Position numbers and translations under genes: made by a program. From Promethearchaeum syntrophicum (GTDB lineage Archaea; Asgardarchaeota; Lokiarchaeia; Sigyniarchaeales; Promethearchaeaceae), in the NCBI RefSeq assembly GCF_008000775.2, contig NZ_CP042905.2:1830001-1862000 (forward strand): a stretch of 32,000 nucleotides of DNA. Direction: 5' to 3'. The notes beneath the pieces are model-generated. The model had not been told where the DNA came from. It did not search any database and worked only from the letters and a program-made list of their open reading frames with translations. Positions 17,881 to 25,601 of this stretch are shown here, one piece after another. Position 1 is the first letter of the stretch. Each line of letters begins with the position of its first letter.

Positions 17881-19098
17881 TTATATCTTCAGAACAAATT
17901 TTGGGAATAATTTTCCAACAATATTACCTAATTCTAAGTTTACAGTCCTATTAACAATTTTTTTTCCTCTATAGATATATGAAGTCTCAGCTACATCAGA
18001 AAAAATGGTGAATCCTTCTTGTATTTCCTGTTCACATACAAAATAGTGTTCATTTTCAATTTCTAAAACCTCAATAACACTATTAATATGGGGTAAATCG
18101 TAACCTCCACCATGTGGTAATACATTAAATTCTTTCAAATTTTTTAAAATTCCAAATTTTTTCGCTCGATTTTCAAATCCTAAATCATCAATTTGCTCTT
18201 CTGACAAACTTTTCACCCCGTGCATTAAATATATAGGAAGATCAGAACGTAAAGCTATAGGGAAAATTTTTTGTTCATCACTTGTAATATGTTGAGCACC
18301 TAAGACTAATTCTCCATAACTTAATAATCCTTGATGCAATGGATTTGAAATTTCTTTAAAATTTCCAAACAGCATTTCTGCTGCTTTTCTTCTTTTATCT
18401 GCTGCAAATTTTTTTGCAAAATTAAAAAATTCAAAATATTCTTTTGCATTATTTCCTTCTAAATATTTAATTTCTCCAAAGGGAGTATTTATAGAATTAC
18501 ATATATTCATTAAATTTTTAGATTTATCATAATATAATCCCACTCCTTTATCATTTTCTTGTTGTAACTCTGGAGCAGAACCATGAATAACAAACATATA
18601 TTTTGGAAACTTTTGAGAATTATAAGAATCTAAATCTGTTTCCATGATATCAATGAAGTGATTTCCTTTATGATAATCCCATTCAACTTTTATATTATCA
18701 ATATAAACTTCGCTTGATACAATATTTTTTACTTTTTTTAAAATATCATCAGGTTTAGGTAATTCATCTAAACCTCCAACTAACATACCGCAAGCATTTG
18801 GTTTTGTATCCACAAATATTAATGGGTCATTTTTATGACCCCAAATCAACTTTCCCCCATAACCATAACCAGAGTTCCATCTTCTTTTATTTCTAGATAT
18901 AGTTTCATCAGGAGTAGATATAAAGGTTGCATTTGGCTTAAGTCCCAAATGGTTTTGAGCAAAATGTATCTTTGCCAATCCAAAACGAAAATTTGATTTA
19001 CAAAGTTTTGCCGCGCCATCATCAATCCCAAGAGAGAAATAATGTTTCTGCGCGTATTTTAGCATTTCCGTTTTTTCCAAGGTATTTTTATATTTCAT
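17881..19098 (-). CDS. Uncharacterised protein with remote RtcB-like metal-site motifs
   Basis: 405 aa. VDTKPNACGM (compare RtcB D-x-x-C-G), KGNHFIDIME (compare RtcB GGGNHF[IL]E[IV]) and VIHGSAPEL (compare H-S/T-GSRG). It is shorter and more divergent than canonical RtcB. It ends 16 nt upstream of pdaD on the same strand. Confidence 0.4.
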   Translation of the reverse strand: MKYKNTLEKTEMLKYAQKHYFSLGIDDGAAKLCKSNFRFGLAKIHFAQNHLGLKPNATFISTPDETISRNKRRWNSGYGYGGKLIWGHKNDPLIFVDTKPNACGMLVGGLDELPKPDDILKKVKNIVSSEVYIDNIKVEWDYHKGNHFIDIMETDLDSYNSQKFPKYMFVIHGSAPELQQENDKGVGLYYDKSKNLMNICNSINTPFGEIKYLEGNNAKEYFEFFNFAKKFAADKRRKAAEMLFGNFKEISNPLHQGLLSYGELVLGAQHITSDEQKIFPIALRSDLPIYLMHGVKSLSEEQIDDLGFENRAKKFGILKNLKEFNVLPHGGGYDLPHINSVIEVLEIENEHYFVCEQEIQEGFTIFSDVAETSYIYRGKKIVNRTVNLELGNIVGKLFPKFVLKI

Positions 19099-19400
19099 AA
19101 TTACAATAACCTCTAAGCTTTTATTTTCTTATTTGTAGTCAATTAATGCCAATAAGGAATTTCATTAGATTTATTTTATATTTTGGATAAATTTATCGTG
19201 GAAAAATTAATTTAATTACATTTTTTTATAGGATTAATAATTAATTTTTTCATAATAGTAAATAAAATCTCAGTTAATAATGTATCGAAACTGCTGAATC
19301 CCTTTTTCTCTCTTTAAATGATGAAAACATGTTCTGTATAAAAATATTTTTTCCTAATTGATACGTTTAAATTTTAGGATTAAAGAGAGATGGCGTATTT

Positions 19401-19480
19401 CCAAAACCTTTATTTTACAAAAAAATATATAATATGTCAAATAAAAAAAAAATTTTTGTTGTTTTTATCTCTATCGCAAG
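19401..19480 (+). promoter_or_regulatory. Conserved promoter/5' leader block of the 138-aa ORF, with a TATA-like ATATATAATA about 50 nt before the ATG
   Basis: CCAAAACCTTTATTTTACAAAAAAATATATAATATGTCAAATAAAAAAAAAATTTTTGTTG..CAAGATG is clearly better conserved with copy B (23304-23380) than the sequence further upstream. The promoter role is inferred. Confidence 0.35.
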
Positions 19481-19897
19481 ATGAAAAAATCAGAAATAAT
19501 AATCAATAATTATAATAATTTGAAGAATATTGGTGATTTACTTGAAAAACTTGAGATATTAACTAAATGGGCTTCAGAAAACTCCATAATTGCCATTTTT
19601 TTTTATCCATCTGATCTGAGAAATAAAATGCAATCAATTGTATTTGCTGCTTATTTCTTAGGATTTTTTGAATTTTGTTATTTTTCCTTATTTTTTAGGA
19701 ATATTGGATGTTTATTATTACAAATACAAGAAACTGATTTATATAATGTATTTAAAACCAGGATTAATGTATCTTTAAATGATCATGACACAATATATGG
19801 ATTTAATACTAACACTAAAAAAGAGTATACGAACAAAAATAAGAGAGATATTTCACTTAATCTACATATTTCTTATCCTATTGGGTGTTTGACTTAA
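19481..19897 (+). CDS. Hypothetical protein, paralog A of a duplicated pair (C-terminus SYPIGCLT)
   Basis: 138 aa, about 49% identical by hand alignment to ORF 23381-23806. Start, stop and frame are conserved. Conserved blocks are MKKS.III, DLL...E.LTK, GFFEFCY.SL.F.NIGC...IQE, RIN, EEYTNKN.RD and SYPIGCLT*. Two open ~140-codon frames in stop-rich AT DNA argue for coding. Confidence 0.65.
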   Translation: MKKSEIIINNYNNLKNIGDLLEKLEILTKWASENSIIAIFFYPSDLRNKMQSIVFAAYFLGFFEFCYFSLFFRNIGCLLLQIQETDLYNVFKTRINVSLNDHDTIYGFNTNTKKEYTNKNKRDISLNLHISYPIGCLT

Positions 19898-19946
19898 AAA
19901 GAGTGATATAATAAAGAAAAATCATATAGAAATTGGAGGTGAAAAA

Positions 19947-20033
19947 ATGCCAAAAAAAACAGTAAAAAAAAAAAAAAAACTTAAAAAAACAACACAAGTA
20001 GTAAAAAAAAACAAAAAAAAAAATGAAAATTGA
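19947..20033 (+). CDS. Lys-rich micro-ORF A (28 aa): MPKKTVKKKKKLKKTTQVVKKNKKKNEN
   Basis: Translated by hand. It is preceded by GGAGGTGA (19935-19942), an 8-nt match to the canonical SD, with 4 nt of spacing to the ATG. Position, SD spacing and a KKTTQ motif are shared with the copy B micro-ORF. It contains a 16-nt A run (19964-19979). Confidence 0.45.
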   Translation: MPKKTVKKKKKLKKTTQVVKKNKKKNEN

Positions 20034-20083
20034 AAGAACAAAAAAGAATTCTTTTATACAATATAATTTGTCTTTAAAAATAC

Positions 20084-20129
20084 GAATCCTGGTTCTAAAT
20101 TGAATCATGTATTTTTTTAGAATTTTTTC
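20084..20129 (+). terminator. Conserved repeat tail: small hairpin (GGTTC-N6-GAATC) followed by a T7 run; possible terminator
   Basis: GAATCCTGGTTCTAAATTGAATCATGTATTTTTTTAGAATTTTTTC is about 85% identical to 24015-24060. Oligo-T tracts act as archaeal termination signals. The hairpin is short and weak. Confidence 0.3.
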
Positions 20130-20177
20130 AAAATAATTCAAAAAACCACAAAGAAGAAGAGGTATTACAAAAAAATT

Positions 20178-21308
20178 ATGGAATTCGATATAAATGTTGT
20201 AAATTCTGAAAATGATCAAAATATATTAGATCGATTTGATGCTAATTATAGTGAATTAAAACTGCTTTCTAGGATAAAACTTCCCTCTAAAATAAGACGA
20301 GTGGGATTAACATTTAATGCTCGACCAGATGATAATATTCCAGAGAGTGATAATGTCTCATTAGAATATGACGAACCAGAGACAATATTTGCAATTCGTG
20401 ATGCACTTCAAAGTGGAGGATATGATGTAGTTCTTTTAGAAGCCGATCAAGATTTTATGGAAAAATTAAAACAGAATCAAGTTGATTTTGTTTTTAATAT
20501 TGCGGAAGGGATTCAAGGTGAATCGCGAGAGTCCCACATTCCTGCAATGCTTGAAATGATGGGTATTCCGTATACAGGTTCTGGCGTGTTAAGTCAAGCA
20601 ATATCCTTAAGTAAAACTCGAACCAAGGAGATTTTAACATACTATAAAATACCCACTCCGAAATATCAATCTTTTAGCAATTCAACAGAAAAATTAGAAA
20701 AGAAGTTTAAATATCCTGTAATTATTAAACCCGATGCAGAGGGATCTAGTGTTGGTATCACTAATGGATCAGTTGTACTCAATGAAAAGCATCTTAGACA
20801 ACAAGTTGAAAAGGTTATTCAAACATTTCCAGGTCCAGCTTTAGCAGAAGAATTCTGTTCTGGGCGAGAATTTACGGTTGGAATAATAGGTAACAATCCT
20901 CCGAAAGTTTTACCGATCATTGAAGTAACTTTCGATCATTTGCCCTCAAACATGGTAAAAATGGATTCCTATGAATCAAAATGGATTTTTGACACAATAG
21001 ATAATGTGAATGATCCTCTTCGATGTCCTGCAAAAATAACACCAAAACTTAAACAAATAATTGAAAATATTGCAATAAAAACTTATACTGTATTGGGTTG
21101 CGTAGATTTGTGCCGAATAGATATTCGTTTGAATAAAAGGGGAATTCCTAATGTTTTAGAAGTTAATGCTCTACCTGGATTAAATCCTAATCCTAGCTTT
21201 CATTCTCGATTTCCCTATGCATGTGCCAAAGCAGGAATTTCTTATGATCAGATGATTTTAACAGTCTTTCAGGCAGGATTAGATCGTTATCGAAAAAAAA
21301 ATATGTAA
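20178..21308 (+). CDS. ATP-grasp ligase of the D-alanine-D-alanine ligase (Ddl) family
   Basis: It aligns by eye to E. coli DdlB. GESRESHIPAMLEMMGIPYTGSGVLSQAISLSKTRTK matches [35 protein letters not shown]. Further matches are PVIIKPDAEGSSVG, SGREFTVGIIG and LGCVDLCRIDIRL...VLEVNALPGLN. Confidence 0.85.
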   Translation: MEFDINVVNSENDQNILDRFDANYSELKLLSRIKLPSKIRRVGLTFNARPDDNIPESDNVSLEYDEPETIFAIRDALQSGGYDVVLLEADQDFMEKLKQNQVDFVFNIAEGIQGESRESHIPAMLEMMGIPYTGSGVLSQAISLSKTRTKEILTYYKIPTPKYQSFSNSTEKLEKKFKYPVIIKPDAEGSSVGITNGSVVLNEKHLRQQVEKVIQTFPGPALAEEFCSGREFTVGIIGNNPPKVLPIIEVTFDHLPSNMVKMDSYESKWIFDTIDNVNDPLRCPAKITPKLKQIIENIAIKTYTVLGCVDLCRIDIRLNKRGIPNVLEVNALPGLNPNPSFHSRFPYACAKAGISYDQMILTVFQAGLDRYRKKNM

Positions 21309-21321
21309 ATTGAAGGTAATT

Positions 21322-22887
21322 ATGTTGAGAATTGGAATTTTTTATAATATCGTTGAACAGTTGGATCGTGGATTTGAAAGCGATAAAATAGCTGATAATG
21401 AAATTATCCAAACTGTTGATTTAGTTTTTAACGCACTTTCAAAGGATCATGAAGTTATTCTTCTTAGGCTTTCCAAAAAAACCATTTCATTAATAACCGA
21501 ATCATACTTTGATATAGTATTCAATCTCTGTGAAGGTTTTGAAGGCAATGTTGAAGCCGAAGCTTATATTCCTGCTTTGTTAGAATTACTTCATATCCCT
21601 TATACAGGTTCCAACTCATTTACTTTAGCTCTTTGTCTGGATAAAGTTCGCACCAAGCAAATTTTAAAAGCATATGATATATTAACACCACGATTTCAAT
21701 TATTCTCGAATAACAATGAAAAAGTCAATGATGATTTGTCTTTTCCATTAATCGTTAAACCAGTCCATGAAGATGCGAGCATTGGGATTTCAATTAATTC
21801 AGTAGTAAAAAATAATGAAGAATTAAAATCTCAAATACATTTTGTTTTAGATAATTACCATCAACCTGCTTTGGTTGAAGAATATATTGATGGGAGAGAA
21901 ATAAATGCTGCAGTAATTGGAAATGGTAACGATCTTGAAATTCTTCCTCTTTCAGAAATAATATTTGATATAGATCCCTATATACCTCGAATAATGGATT
22001 ATAAAAGTAAATGGGTAGAAGATTCATATATGTTTCAACGAACTAAAGGGATATCTCCAGCTGAAATTGATGATTTTTTATCTGAAAAAATACAAGATAT
22101 TGCTAAACGTGCTTATCAAGCTACTGGATGTCGAGATTACGCAAGGGTTGATTTTCGCATTAAAAACGAGGAGATTTTTGTTTTAGAAGTTAATCCAAAC
22201 CCAGGAATTAATTCGGATAGTGGCTTTTTTCGTTGCGCAATAACTTCTGGCATGAATTATAAGCAATTTATTAAAAAAATTCTTTCAGTAGCAGTTAAAC
22301 GATATCAAATAAGAATCGATAAAACACAAATGGAATCTCAAAAAGAAAATCCTGTTCATTCATCTGAAAATTTAGATTTTTATTATGTTCGGTTAAAAAA
22401 TATTCCCTTATTACAAGAATGGTTTAATAACCCCGCGATTGCTCAATTTATGTCGGATCCTGATACTAAATCTGAAAAAGACCCTCTTATCGCTTCATAT
22501 ATCCTTAAATCTAACCCGAAAGATTATACAATCCCTAAAGATGGTATTTATTTCATAGTAACAGATAGAATTTCTCAAAAACAAATGGGTTATTGTGCAA
22601 TTTACGATATTACTTGGTGGAATAGCACAGCTGAGATTTCTTATTTAATTGGAGATGAAAATTTTTTAAAAAAAGGTTTTTCAAAGGAAATTATAAGTGG
22701 ATTACTCTACTTTGCTGAAAAAGAATTAAAATTGTGCCGTCTTGAAGCCTCAGTTACTCAAAAAAATATAGCTTCCTGGATATCTTTAGAAAAAACGGGA
22801 TTCGAGCGTGTTGGTTATAGAACATGTACTCATCGTTTACACGGTGAATCATATGACGAATATATTTATGAATATGTGTTTGAATAA
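21322..22887 (+). CDS. Fusion protein: Ddl-family ATP-grasp ligase (N-terminal) plus RimJ/RimL-type GNAT N-acetyltransferase (C-terminal)
   Basis: ATP-grasp part: FNLCEGFEGNVEAEAYIPALLELLHIPYTGSNSFTLALCLDKVRTK, PLIVKPVHEDASIGIS, DGREINAAVIG and GCRDYARVDFRI...VLEVNPNPGIN. GNAT part (from about aa 355): LDFYYVRLKNIPLLQEWFNNP...EISYLIGDENFLKKGFSKEII...LCRLEASVTQKNIASWISLEKTGFERVGY. The ATG at 21322 follows GAAGGT, and the gene starts 14 nt after the upstream stop. Confidence 0.85.
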   Translation: MLRIGIFYNIVEQLDRGFESDKIADNEIIQTVDLVFNALSKDHEVILLRLSKKTISLITESYFDIVFNLCEGFEGNVEAEAYIPALLELLHIPYTGSNSFTLALCLDKVRTKQILKAYDILTPRFQLFSNNNEKVNDDLSFPLIVKPVHEDASIGISINSVVKNNEELKSQIHFVLDNYHQPALVEEYIDGREINAAVIGNGNDLEILPLSEIIFDIDPYIPRIMDYKSKWVEDSYMFQRTKGISPAEIDDFLSEKIQDIAKRAYQATGCRDYARVDFRIKNEEIFVLEVNPNPGINSDSGFFRCAITSGMNYKQFIKKILSVAVKRYQIRIDKTQMESQKENPVHSSENLDFYYVRLKNIPLLQEWFNNPAIAQFMSDPDTKSEKDPLIASYILKSNPKDYTIPKDGIYFIVTDRISQKQMGYCAIYDITWWNSTAEISYLIGDENFLKKGFSKEIISGLLYFAEKELKLCRLEASVTQKNIASWISLEKTGFERVGYRTCTHRLHGESYDEYIYEYVFE

Positions 22888-22932
22888 AGAAATATTTTAT
22901 AATAGCATAAAAATTTTCTTGAAAGAAGGAGC

Positions 22933-22993
22933 AATAATGTTTCTATGCATATTTTAGCATTTCCAATTTTTCCATATTAACTTTTTATTTCAT
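22933..22993 (-). pseudogene. Decayed 5' fragment of an RtcB-like gene paralog
   Basis: The reverse complement reads ATG AAA TAA AAA GTT AAT ATG GAA AAA TTG GAA ATG CTA AAA TAT GCA TAG AAA CAT TAT, which is MK*KVNMEKLEMLKYA*KHY. The intact gene at 19098 begins MKYKNTLEKTEMLKYAQKHYF. There are two in-frame stops, and similarity ends at about 22933. Confidence 0.7.
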
Positions 22994-23303
22994 AAAAACA
23001 ATAACTTCTAAATCGTAATTTTCTTATTTTTGGTCAATTTATGCCAATAAGGGATATAATTAGATTCAAATCGCATTTTGGGTAAAATTTTCATTAAAAA
23101 AAAGATTTAATACTATCTTTTTATAAGATTAATACCCATTTTTTCAACTTGAATCAAGAAAATCTTAGCTATGAATATTTAAAACTGCTCAACATGATAA
23201 ATTCCTTTTTCTTCCTTTATTGGATATGTAGAAGTCCAGTTTAAACATATAAATTTCAAGCTTCTACGCACATAATTTAGAATTAAAGCGATGTAATGTT
23301 TTT

Positions 23304-23380
23304 CCATAACCTTTATCTTATACAAATATATATAATCTTCAAATAAAAAAAATTTTTTTTGTTATTATCACTACCACAAG
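23304..23380 (+). promoter_or_regulatory. Conserved promoter/5' leader block of the 141-aa ORF (TATA-like ATATATATAAT about 50 nt before the ATG)
   Basis: CCATAACCTTTATCTTATACAAATATATATAATCTTCAAATAAAAAAAATTTTTTTTGTT..CAAGATG is the counterpart of 19401-19480. Confidence 0.35.
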
Positions 23381-23806
23381 ATGAAAAAATCAAAAATAAT
23401 AATCAAATATTGCAAACTTTTGAAGAAAATTAGTGATTTACTTGATATAATTGAGAGATTAACTAAAAATGCTTTAAGTATCTCAAAAAATACTGTTTTT
23501 TATAATCATTCTGATCAGAAATATAAAATACAATTAATTTTATTTGATGTAAATTTTATAGGATTTTTTGAATTTTGTTATCTTTCTTTATGTTTTAACA
23601 ATATTGGATGTTATTTTGTGGAAATTCAAGAAATTGAAGCAAGGTGTATATCTAAAATTAGGATTAATGCAACTTTCAATGTTCAAAATATATTTTTTGG
23701 AACTATATTTAATTCCAAAGAAGAGTATACAAATAAAAATCAGAGAGACAAATTGATTTGTCCGAATAATATTCTTAAGTCTTATCCTATAGGGTGTTTG
23801 ACTTAA
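23381..23806 (+). CDS. Hypothetical protein, paralog B of the duplicated pair (C-terminus SYPIGCLT)
   Basis: 141 aa. See ORF 19481-19897 for the conserved blocks. It has the same start context (CAAGATGAAAAAATC) and an identical final 8 residues. Confidence 0.65.
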   Translation: MKKSKIIIKYCKLLKKISDLLDIIERLTKNALSISKNTVFYNHSDQKYKIQLILFDVNFIGFFEFCYLSLCFNNIGCYFVEIQEIEARCISKIRINATFNVQNIFFGTIFNSKEEYTNKNQRDKLICPNNILKSYPIGCLT

Positions 23807-23857
23807 GAAAAAGGAAAAATTTGATGAAATATCAAAATTGAACTAGTAGGTGAATAA

Positions 23858-23962
23858 ATGCAAGCAAAAAAGTCAAAAAAACAGAAAAAAAATAAGCAAA
23901 ACAAAAAAACAACACAGAAAAAAAGTGAAGAAAATTACAATGTTAATTTGTATATAGATTGA
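23858..23962 (+). CDS. Lys-rich micro-ORF B (34 aa): MQAKKSKKQKKNKQNKKTTQKKSEENYNVNLYID
   Basis: Translated by hand. TAGGTGA (23847-23853) lies 4 nt before the ATG, the same spacing as in copy A. It shares the KKTTQ motif (AAAAAAACAACACA at DNA level) and ends in a Ser/Glu/Asp-containing tail. Confidence 0.4.
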   Translation: MQAKKSKKQKKNKQNKKTTQKKSEENYNVNLYID

Positions 23963-24014
23963 AAGACAAAATAAAATTTATATAAGTGCTTTAAAAAAGA
24001 GTTTTTGAAGATAT

Positions 24015-24060
24015 GAATTCTGGTTCTATATTGAATCACATATTTTTTTTGAGTTTTTCC
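24015..24060 (+). terminator. Conserved repeat tail, copy B: hairpin (GGTTC-N6-GAATC) plus a T8 run
   Basis: GAATTCTGGTTCTATATTGAATCACATATTTTTTTTGAGTTTTTCC is the counterpart of 20084-20129. It abuts the stop codon of the convergent AMP phosphorylase gene. Confidence 0.3.
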
Positions 24061-25601
24061 TAAATTTTTTCTAACGTCATCCCCCCTAATATCTGAGGTG
24101 GATGTGAATTATAAAATTCTACGGCTTCTTTCAGTCTTTTTTCATTATATGAATAGATTTTAAAAATGATTTCTCCTTTTTTGGTATTTTGCCCGATTTT
24201 TCGCTCAATTACAATTCCTGCTTCCTTCACACCTGGACATCCTGCAATCTTTGCAATTCTGTTAACATATTCATTCCTAACTGCTGTTATAAAGCCATTA
24301 TCAGTTGATTTCATCTCTGCAACAAACGGGCCTATCTTTATATCTTCTGGTTTAATTTCAGGATCTCCTCCTTGGGCTTTAATAATCCTCTTCATAGCTT
24401 TATATGCTTTTCCAGAGTTCAAAATTTCTAAAGCTAACTCCTTACCTTCACCTTCCTGTGCTTTTCCCGCCATCTCGAGTAAGATTCCCGCTAATTCACA
24501 AGATTTATTCCGAAGGCTAGAAGGGCCAAAAGAAGGATCAATTAATAATTTTAAAGCTTCTTGAGCTTCTAAGGCTGGTCCAACAGCATGTCCGATTGGT
24601 TGAGATGCATTTGTGAGTAAGCAGATACATTCAACACCCACTCTTCTTGCAATTTCTTTAAATTTATTGGCGAATTTCCTTCCATCTTCAAGCATTGGGA
24701 ATTTTGTTCCTTTTCCACAAGGAATATCTAAAACTAATTTCCGAACACCAAGAGCTTTTTTCTTACAAAGTATGCTAGCTATCATTAAAGGTAGAGGGTC
24801 TAATGTTAATGGTTTTTCAACCCTTATTAGGGCATTATCGGCTGGAGCTAAGTCTAATTCTCCCCCCCAAATAATTCCTGCTTTTTCTTTTTGTAATAAT
24901 TTCACTACTTCTTCTTTTGGAAAAGTCACAGGTGCAAGAACTTCAAAACTATCAGCTGTTCCCGATGGGCTGGTAATTGCACGTGTTGATGTTTTTGGAA
25001 TGAGTAATCCTGCAGCAGCGACAATAGGAACAATAATTAATGTAACTTTATTTCCTGGAACTCCTCCCGTGCTGTGTTTATCATAACATTCTGGACCAAA
25101 ATCTAAAACTTCTCCTGAATGTGTCATAGCCTCGGTCAAATCAACAATTTCATCATTTTTAGCACCCATAGTTTCCAATCCAACAATAAATGCTGCTTTT
25201 TCAATTGCTAGTAAGTTATCATGAGTACAATCCTGAATAATCTCTTGAATTTGAGTTGTAGTAAGTTTTTTTCCCTTAACTTTCTCTTTAATAGATAAAA
25301 ATGATTTCGGTCGTGAAGATAATTGAATTTCTATCTCTTTTGTTTTAGAACTTAATTCTAATTTCTTTGCAACTTCATCATATAAACCAACTTCTCCTCG
25401 CTTTAGCATTTCTTCTCCGGTAGCTATGTCGATAATTGTAATTATCCCGGGTTCAATAATGCTACCATTTTCTTCATCAATATGAAATATTCTCACCCTA
25501 TCTCCGGGTTTTGCCCCCAATTCAAATGCGTCATCATCATCCATGATGATAATCCGAACGGCACCCGTGCTAATTCCCAGTTTTTTAAATTTAAATCTCA
25601 T
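24060..25601 (-). CDS. deoA: AMP phosphorylase (archaeal thymidine-phosphorylase-family enzyme with an N-terminal extension)
   Basis: 513 aa. The N-terminal domain MRFKFKKLGISTGAVRIIIMDDDDAFELGAKPGDRVRI is typical of archaeal AMP phosphorylases. The core has DKHSTGGVPGNKVT and TSTRAITSPSGTAD (glycosyl transferase family 3 / pyrimidine nucleoside phosphorylase motifs). Confidence 0.85.
   Translation of the reverse strand: MRFKFKKLGISTGAVRIIIMDDDDAFELGAKPGDRVRIFHIDEENGSIIEPGIITIIDIATGEEMLKRGEVGLYDEVAKKLELSSKTKEIEIQLSSRPKSFLSIKEKVKGKKLTTTQIQEIIQDCTHDNLLAIEKAAFIVGLETMGAKNDEIVDLTEAMTHSGEVLDFGPECYDKHSTGGVPGNKVTLIIVPIVAAAGLLIPKTSTRAITSPSGTADSFEVLAPVTFPKEEVVKLLQKEKAGIIWGGELDLAPADNALIRVEKPLTLDPLPLMIASILCKKKALGVRKLVLDIPCGKGTKFPMLEDGRKFANKFKEIARRVGVECICLLTNASQPIGHAVGPALEAQEALKLLIDPSFGPSSLRNKSCELAGILLEMAGKAQEGEGKELALEILNSGKAYKAMKRIIKAQGGDPEIKPEDIKIGPFVAEMKSTDNGFITAVRNEYVNRIAKIAGCPGVKEAGIVIERKIGQNTKKGEIIFKIYSYNEKRLKEAVEFYNSHPPQILGGMTLEKI

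Follow-up and report, generated by a model that had tools for sequence, protein, structure and literature searches.

Several described systems resemble one part or another of the locus reported here. In the Shine-Dalgarno (SD)-led internal cistrons of archaeal operons, a first gene without an SD is followed, about 50 nt behind it, by an SD complementary to the 16S rRNA and, after the cistron, by an oligo-T terminator; oligo-T alone is what archaeal transcription termination needs. Lokiarchaeial proteins such as ProRS, RadA-like and wHTH proteins carry Lys-rich tails that are encoded by runs of AAA in the style M-[AP]-KK-T..KKKK..KKTT..VVKK, often behind the start context AGGTGAA(A)nATG. In leader-peptide attenuators, a short ORF rich in one codon lies ahead of a hairpin with a T-run and an operon, and ribosomes of E. 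coli and eukaryotes are known to slide and stall on runs of AAA codons (PMC4363877). Graspetide precursors, finally, are small peptides accompanied by the ATP-grasp ligases MdnB/MdnC and the GNAT protein MdnD (PMC8939145). SD sites themselves are scarce in Lokiarchaea (PMC7531240, PMC12993045), and this applies also to the genome analyzed here, a single 4.32-Mb contig of 31% G+C whose 16S rRNA is archaeal and ends in ...GGATCACCTCC. The window, a stretch of 32,000 nt from this genome, contains two Lys-rich micro-ORFs that we compare below with each of these systems.

Micro-ORF A (19947-20033, plus strand) encodes MPKKTVKKKKKLKKTTQVVKKNKKKNEN, a peptide of 28 aa of which 14 are Lys, every one of them specified by AAA. 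Micro-ORF B (23858-23962, plus strand) encodes MQAKKSKKQKKNKQNKKTTQKKSEENYNVNLYID, which has 34 aa and 11 Lys. The SD of micro-ORF A, GGAGGTGA (19935-19942, plus strand), is an 8-nt complement of the 16S 3′ end, and that of micro-ORF B, AGGTGA (23848-23853, plus strand), is a 6-nt complement; both are perfectly complementary to the genome's own 16S rRNA and both are spaced 4 nt from the ATG. The two peptides share the core KKTTQ, whose codons form the identical string AAAAAAACAACACA in both copies (19983-19997 in A and 23903-23917 in B, plus strand), and are very different outside it. Acidic residues are few: peptide A has one Glu and no Asp, and peptide B two Glu and one Asp. Neither peptide has a match in Pfam, PHROGs, NCBIfam or PADLOC. 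Micro-ORF A also contains a homopolymer of 16 A residues (19964-19979, plus strand), which comprises five AAA codons and the A that closes the GTA codon before them, whereas the longest A-run of copy B is A8 at most. A run of 16 keeps the frame of micro-ORF A, and one of 15 or 17 would lead it into a stop within 1-8 codons. The gap from the stop of the upstream orphan gene to the micro-ORF start is 49 nt in copy A (138-aa gene) and 51 nt in copy B (141-aa gene), and 144 nt separate the end of micro-ORF A from the first of two ATP-grasp genes. A previous, sequence-only reading of this DNA had already located the micro-ORFs, their SDs 4 nt ahead of the ATG, the common KKTTQ and the A16 tract correctly, and its estimates of about 50 nt to the paralogous 138/141-aa ORFs and about 145 nt to the first ATP-grasp gene agree with our measurements. 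The ends of the micro-ORFs depend on the genetic code. An alternative code (table 25 or 4) would lengthen both past their common TGA-AAG; real genes are no longer under table 25, so the code is standard, TGA is a true stop and both micro-ORFs end as given above. Fusion of the orphan genes with the micro-ORFs by read-through was likewise rejected, since stops intervene and the frames differ (+1 in A, 0 in B).

Both micro-ORFs belong to one segmental duplication of about 1.09 kb, a direct repeat that is ~72-75% identical by pairwise alignment and of which a BLASTN search of the genome recovered two copies only. The micro-ORFs come as a pair because the whole 1.09-kb cassette was duplicated, and the two are therefore not independent observations. 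Copy A (19040-20130, plus strand) extends from the 5′ end of a 405-aa RtcB-like gene to a hairpin with a T-run and spans in between an intergenic and promoter region, the orphan gene P0001 and micro-ORF A. Copy B (22935-24065, plus strand) has at its left end a dead stub of the RtcB-like 5′ end (minus strand, ATG AAA TAA), whereas the 405-aa gene is intact beside copy A. The order of elements in the cassette is a divergent RtcB-like 5′ end, an intergenic region with a BRE/TATA-like box, the orphan gene, a spacer of ~50 nt, the SD with its micro-ORF, and the hairpin with a T-run. The box reads AACCTTTATTTTACA in copy A, 5′ of P0001 (19405-19419, plus strand), and AACCTTTATCTTATA at the corresponding place in copy B (23308-23322, plus strand); it is a conserved block in the alignment of the copies, and its resemblance to the archaeal consensus points to a role as promoter. 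Identity between the copies ranges from 62 to 85% by segment (RtcB-like stub segment 81%, intergenic region 68%, promoter and 5′ UTR 80.5%, orphan gene 75%, SD-ATG block 79% or 15/19, remainder of the micro-ORF 62%, hairpin and T-run 85%), except for a 36-nt spacer at 53%.

The hairpin with T7 that forms the terminator-like end of cassette A (20076-20118, plus strand) has a folding energy of -13.3 kcal/mol (z = -3.3), and its counterpart in cassette B (24007-24050), which is flanked by an A-run and T8, one of -13.9 kcal/mol (z = -2.5). Between them, one pair has changed on both sides in a compensatory way (C-G to U-A) and another on one side only (G.U to G-C). The hairpin of cassette B is a predicted bidirectional terminator, shared by the cassette on the plus strand and a convergent AMP-phosphorylase gene on the minus strand. 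In both copies the hairpin begins 43-45 nt past the micro-ORF stop, and hairpin and T-run are found only downstream of the micro-ORF, with none ahead of it. Rfam and tRNA scans of the window gave no match; a scan for sigma-70 promoters and intrinsic terminators is uninformative for an archaeon.

The first cistron of cassette A, P0001 (138 aa, 19481-19897, plus strand), has no SD, and its sole homologue, at 50% identity, is its paralogue P0002 (141 aa, 23381-23806, plus strand), the first cistron of cassette B. No homologue besides each other was found for either in a database of 5.8 billion proteins, in 40 relatives or in metagenome and genome contigs, nor any match in PADLOC, PHROGs, NCBIfam or Pfam, and no confident model was obtained for the fold of P0001 (AlphaFold2 pLDDT 46; ESM Atlas model 0.36). 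The changes between them are spread evenly across codon positions (31, 37 and 37) and dN/dS is 0.97. When 105 neutral substitutions were simulated in frames of matching length and composition, 0.065% of them remained open (P = 6.5e-4). P0001 and P0002 are real, fast-evolving genes whose frame is held open by selection, and the pattern of change points to selection that is diversifying or very relaxed. Blocks invariant between the two include GFFEFCY, NIGC and the C-terminal SYPIGCLT.

The SD of micro-ORF A stands out in this genome. Of the intergenic ATG-ORFs of 20-60 aa, 1718 in all, just 20 are preceded by an SD match of at least 6 nt; micro-ORF A is the sole one with 8 nt as well as the most Lys-rich of all. 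The 8-mer GGAGGTGA occurs 35 times genome-wide and is followed by an ATG at four of these places, while about 185 long ORFs carry GGTGA 2-8 nt ahead of their ATG, 4 nt being the commonest spacing. SD-like 5-mers precede 17% of the genes that lie at most 100 nt behind a gene on the same strand, compared with 8% of divergent first genes. In this genome the SD may thus chiefly serve operon-internal cistrons, and the difference fits a micro-ORF that follows, as an SD-led second cistron, a first cistron without SD. Each micro-ORF has, as internal cistrons do, an SD complementary to the 16S rRNA at a working distance from the ATG (8 and 6 nt of pairing, 4 nt of spacing), and its position close behind a same-strand gene, with a predicted terminator after rather than before it, is consistent with the same class. 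The micro-ORFs differ from known internal cistrons in their size of 28-34 codons, their low complexity and the lack of orthologues among the genomes searched, and their co-transcription with the gene upstream is presumptive.

An alternative is that the A-rich tract separating the orphan gene from the terminator is untranslated, as a spacer or a 3′ UTR, and that its SD, ATG and open frame are accidents that the copies hold in common by recent duplication; such a tract might keep histones off or add T-runs to the opposite strand. In agreement with this, open frames arise readily in such A-rich DNA: shuffled sequences are open in 18% (A) and 5% (B) of trials, and the micro-ORF frames remain open after neutral substitution in about 15-30%. 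The same tract holds a second open plus-strand frame over copy B (23850-23957), which is probably spurious, and an antisense 113-aa poly-Phe ORF over copy A (19878-20219, minus strand), which has no counterpart in copy B and was treated as spurious; the two show how cheap open frames are here. Intergenic AGGTGA, at 161 sites against ~145 expected from a rough composition estimate, is not clearly commoner than chance; 24% of the sites lie ahead of a long ORF, and half have no start codon behind them. On the minus strand, moreover, repeated runs of T6-T8 follow the AMP-phosphorylase terminator in copy B. Against an untranslated spacer, the strongest SD among the 1718 small ORFs precedes the most Lys-rich one, the SD-ATG block is better conserved than the adjoining spacer, and no T-rich zone of this kind follows the same terminator in a same-genus genome (G002). 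The lengths of the micro-ORFs also argue for a reading frame. The interval between ATG and KKTTQ measures 36 nt in A and 45 nt in B, and that between KKTTQ and the aligned TGA 48 and 57 nt, so that each differs by 9 nt, a multiple of 3; nucleotide aligners break these differences into indels that are not multiples of 3, and the net values alone count. A further argument comes from where extreme A-tracts occur. Within genes across the whole genome, A-runs of at least 10 nt number 313 in the mRNA sense and 29 in the antisense (U-runs), and 80-nt windows with at least 70% A number 17, of which 10 are in coding sense and 4 are intergenic. Two of these four are the micro-ORFs, and the remaining two contain no ORF. 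On balance we regard an untranslated spacer as unlikely, though as an explanation to be taken seriously.

The sequence-only reading had taken the conserved translation signals as a sign of real peptides. The SD-ATG block is indeed conserved, with 79% identity against 53% in the spacer, but the argument carries less weight than was claimed, because the copies stem from one young duplication and non-coding parts of the repeat are themselves 68-81% identical. The comparison of orthologous loci for retention of SD, ATG and KKTTQ that had been proposed found nothing to align: no orthologue of the cassette was detected in 40 relatives at the protein level, in 20 relatives at the DNA level, in the 5.8-billion-protein database or in metagenome and genome contigs, and DNA matches to the micro-ORF region are low-complexity Lys tails of unrelated genes. 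With two young, related copies and no orthologues, tests of conservation have little power. That the micro-ORFs yield real peptides is nonetheless plausible, if unproven, given the strong SD, the canonical spacing, the place behind a same-strand gene, the frame-keeping lengths and the Lys-tail-like composition. The evidence for translation is moderate; we lean towards translation of the micro-ORFs, and somewhat less towards a function of the peptide itself.

Both peptides score like the Lys-rich N-terminal tails of genuine host proteins. Genuine long ORFs share the start contexts TAGGTGAAAAAAATG and TAGGTGAATCATAATG, and several of these then encode K/T-rich tails. The Lokiarchaeial tails, in the host and in its relatives, resemble the micro-ORFs in composition, in style, in their coding by AAA runs and often in start context; in contrast to the micro-ORFs, they are fused to a folded domain of at least 120 aa, whereas the micro-ORF frame ends at 28 or 34 residues and consists of the tail alone. 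The ProRS of the host genome (829586-831148, minus strand) has a Lys-rich N-terminal tail of about 33 aa, MQAKKNKKTQSS..., which starts MQAKKNKK, and the tail of the ProRS of a relative (G001, L021:38-1603, minus strand), MNANTKKKTQSSKKTVKK..., contains KKTVKK..VVKKN. Both tails bear a superficial resemblance to the micro-ORFs. Descent of the micro-ORFs from a ProRS 5′ end was considered and rejected, as other K-tailed genes score equally well or better against them.

Alternatively, each micro-ORF could be what is left of a longer gene, its ribosome-binding site and its Lys-rich N-terminal tail, the gene body having been lost before the duplication; such a remnant may still be translated but would itself lack a function. 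Start context and peptide style match those of real K-tailed genes, both ORFs stop soon after the tail at an aligned TGAAAGA, and the island in which they lie is a rearranging one that also contains the truncated RtcB-like stub. No trace of a gene body, however, is present downstream in either copy, and the likeness to the ProRS tail is no better than that to other K-tails. The survival of an unselected SD, ATG and frame through ~25-30% divergence would moreover need luck, and we consider such an orphaned gene start distinctly unlikely.

The reading that we tentatively favor, at a little short of an even chance, is that the micro-ORFs encode free, disordered, polycationic peptides, each as the SD-driven second cistron of a two-gene cassette that is small, strain-specific and fast-evolving. 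The BRE/TATA promoter would drive a bicistronic transcript, from which the orphan 138/141-aa gene would be translated without SD as the first cistron. Ribosomes would then restart at the strong SD, on an unstructured A-rich stretch, to make a disordered polycation of 28-34 aa, and transcription would stop at the hairpin and oligo-T. By analogy with the tails of host proteins, a probable role of the peptide is in binding nucleic acid or an acidic partner or surface, possibly together with the orphan protein. The Ddl-type ATP-grasp operon between the copies would be functionally untied to the peptides. If the micro-ORFs are translated, they would be unusually clear small proteins in a Lokiarchaeon, where SD-led initiation is rare, and a Lys-rich tail of the kind common on Asgard proteins could exist as a separate peptide.

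The cassette copies flank two ATP-grasp genes of the Ddl type (20178-22887, plus strand), of which the second carries a fused RimJ/L-type GNAT domain. The place of these genes between the micro-ORFs is reminiscent of microviridin clusters, and one reading is that the peptides are RiPP-type, graspetide-like precursors or substrates of the two ATP-grasp enzymes and the GNAT domain. The likeness lies in a small Thr/Lys peptide beside two ATP-grasp genes and a GNAT, and the peptides do contain Thr-Thr, Lys and a few Glu/Asp. In contrast to the graspetide systems (PMC8939145), with ligases of the RimK-related MdnB/MdnC clade, both proteins here have D-Ala-D-Ala ligase as their best Pfam, NCBIfam and PDB matches, structure matches are to Ddl only, and a match to RimK was obtained for the second protein alone and is weak (5e-6). 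Ligases of the Ddl type act on small molecules. Several core Asp/Glu that pair with Thr/Ser/Lys side chains would be expected of a graspetide precursor, and acidic partners are almost absent, peptide A having a single acidic residue; no leader/core organization is apparent, and no protease or exporter gene is present. G005 and G010, two genomes from a different genus of this family, have an orthologous pair of ATP-grasp genes, kept as a unit, with 53% and 48% identity (loci L018 5232-7966 and L019 4748-7457). At the loci in G005 and G010 there is no cassette and no Lys-rich small ORF within several kb, so that precursor and ligases are not co-conserved, and the micro-ORFs move with the orphan gene and not with the operon. 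A role of the peptides as RiPP precursors is therefore unsupported, and we hold it to be extremely improbable. The ATP-grasp/GNAT pair looks, from its family assignment, like a small-molecule ligase system, perhaps for an acetylated dipeptide, and is better studied as such; a link to the micro-ORF peptides is unsupported. The idea that micro-ORF A is a lost N-terminus of the first ATP-grasp gene was also discarded: the frame is shared, but the two are separated by three stops and by DNA that is part of the repeat.

The two cassettes, with the ATP-grasp pair between them and the RtcB-like gene next to cassette A, make up an island of ~6.2 kb (17881-24006), among neighbors that encode deoxyhypusine synthase, a pyruvoyl arginine decarboxylase and an AMP-phosphorylase-like enzyme. 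These neighbors point to a Lokiarchaeon-like Asgard host. The island is missing in three same-genus genomes, where the AMP-phosphorylase gene adjoins pdaD (gaps of 34-180 nt). In a further genome (G008) the RtcB-like gene adjoins pdaD, with a kinase-like gene upstream of it. A hairpin similar to that of cassette B lies 3′ of the AMP-phosphorylase gene in G002. We read the hairpin of cassette B as the ancestral bidirectional terminator of the AMP-phosphorylase gene, later copied into cassette A. With that terminator as part of the cassette, a single cassette would once have lain between the RtcB-like and AMP-phosphorylase genes, and the ATP-grasp operon would have come to stand between the copies only later. 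The locus exemplifies strain-specific islands, here one that carries a direct repeat of 1.1 kb and orphan genes at dN/dS ~1.

This history bears on a further suggestion of the sequence-only reading, namely a leader peptide rich in Lys codons or a ribosome-stalling sensor; translation of micro-ORF A would then control read-through into the ATP-grasp operon. In copy A the layout is indeed that of an attenuator, a short ORF rich in one codon followed by a hairpin with T7 immediately 5′ of the first ATP-grasp gene, and sliding and stalling on AAA runs have precedent in other systems (PMC4363877). Copy B has the same layout, but a convergent gene lies ahead of it instead of an operon, whereas an attenuator would always stand upstream of the operon that it regulates. 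Nor is there an alternative pairing over the micro-ORF of the kind that attenuators have: folding of the whole region gave no significant alternative structure overlapping or abutting the leader ORF (z = -0.7 and -0.9), and the hairpin, at 43-45 nt past the stop, is beyond the reach of a terminating ribosome. If the hairpin is an old AMP-phosphorylase terminator, the cassette is older than the arrival of the operon, and the orthologous operons have no such leader. Taken together, these observations leave the leader or sensor without support, and we judge it highly improbable.

The A16 tract can also be considered by itself as a possible stalling element. In copy A the in-frame run is long enough for the sliding seen in E. 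coli and eukaryotes (PMC4363877); a poly(A)-track element would have about 11-12 or more consecutive in-frame A residues in both copies, and copy A has A16 whereas copy B has A8 at most, so the run is not conserved. Similar runs are common in ordinary host genes, and no regulated target was identified. The A16 tract is one of nine A/T runs of at least 16 nt genome-wide, six of which are in coding sense, with lengths of 16-19 nt, and ordinary genes bear A16-A19. This archaeon routinely translates poly(A) tracks that are known to stall or slide other ribosomes. It is conceivable, though we think it rather doubtful, that the micro-ORFs are free-standing poly-lysine micro-proteins with an A16 in the message, and that the Asgard ribosome either reads through poly(A) and poly-Lys or uses sliding to tune output. 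Were this true, the cassette would be a compact natural reporter of how a eukaryote-like archaeal ribosome behaves on poly(A) tracks, and the A16 coding run offers a simple test of the Asgard ribosome on them. Elsewhere in the host genome, near 2319321 on the minus strand, an intergenic small ORF of 43 codons led by the SD AGGTGA encodes LVKKQSMSKKASKRIQSAQDRKGSKGDQGFKARAQRAASKNSK, which looks like a genuine small basic protein.
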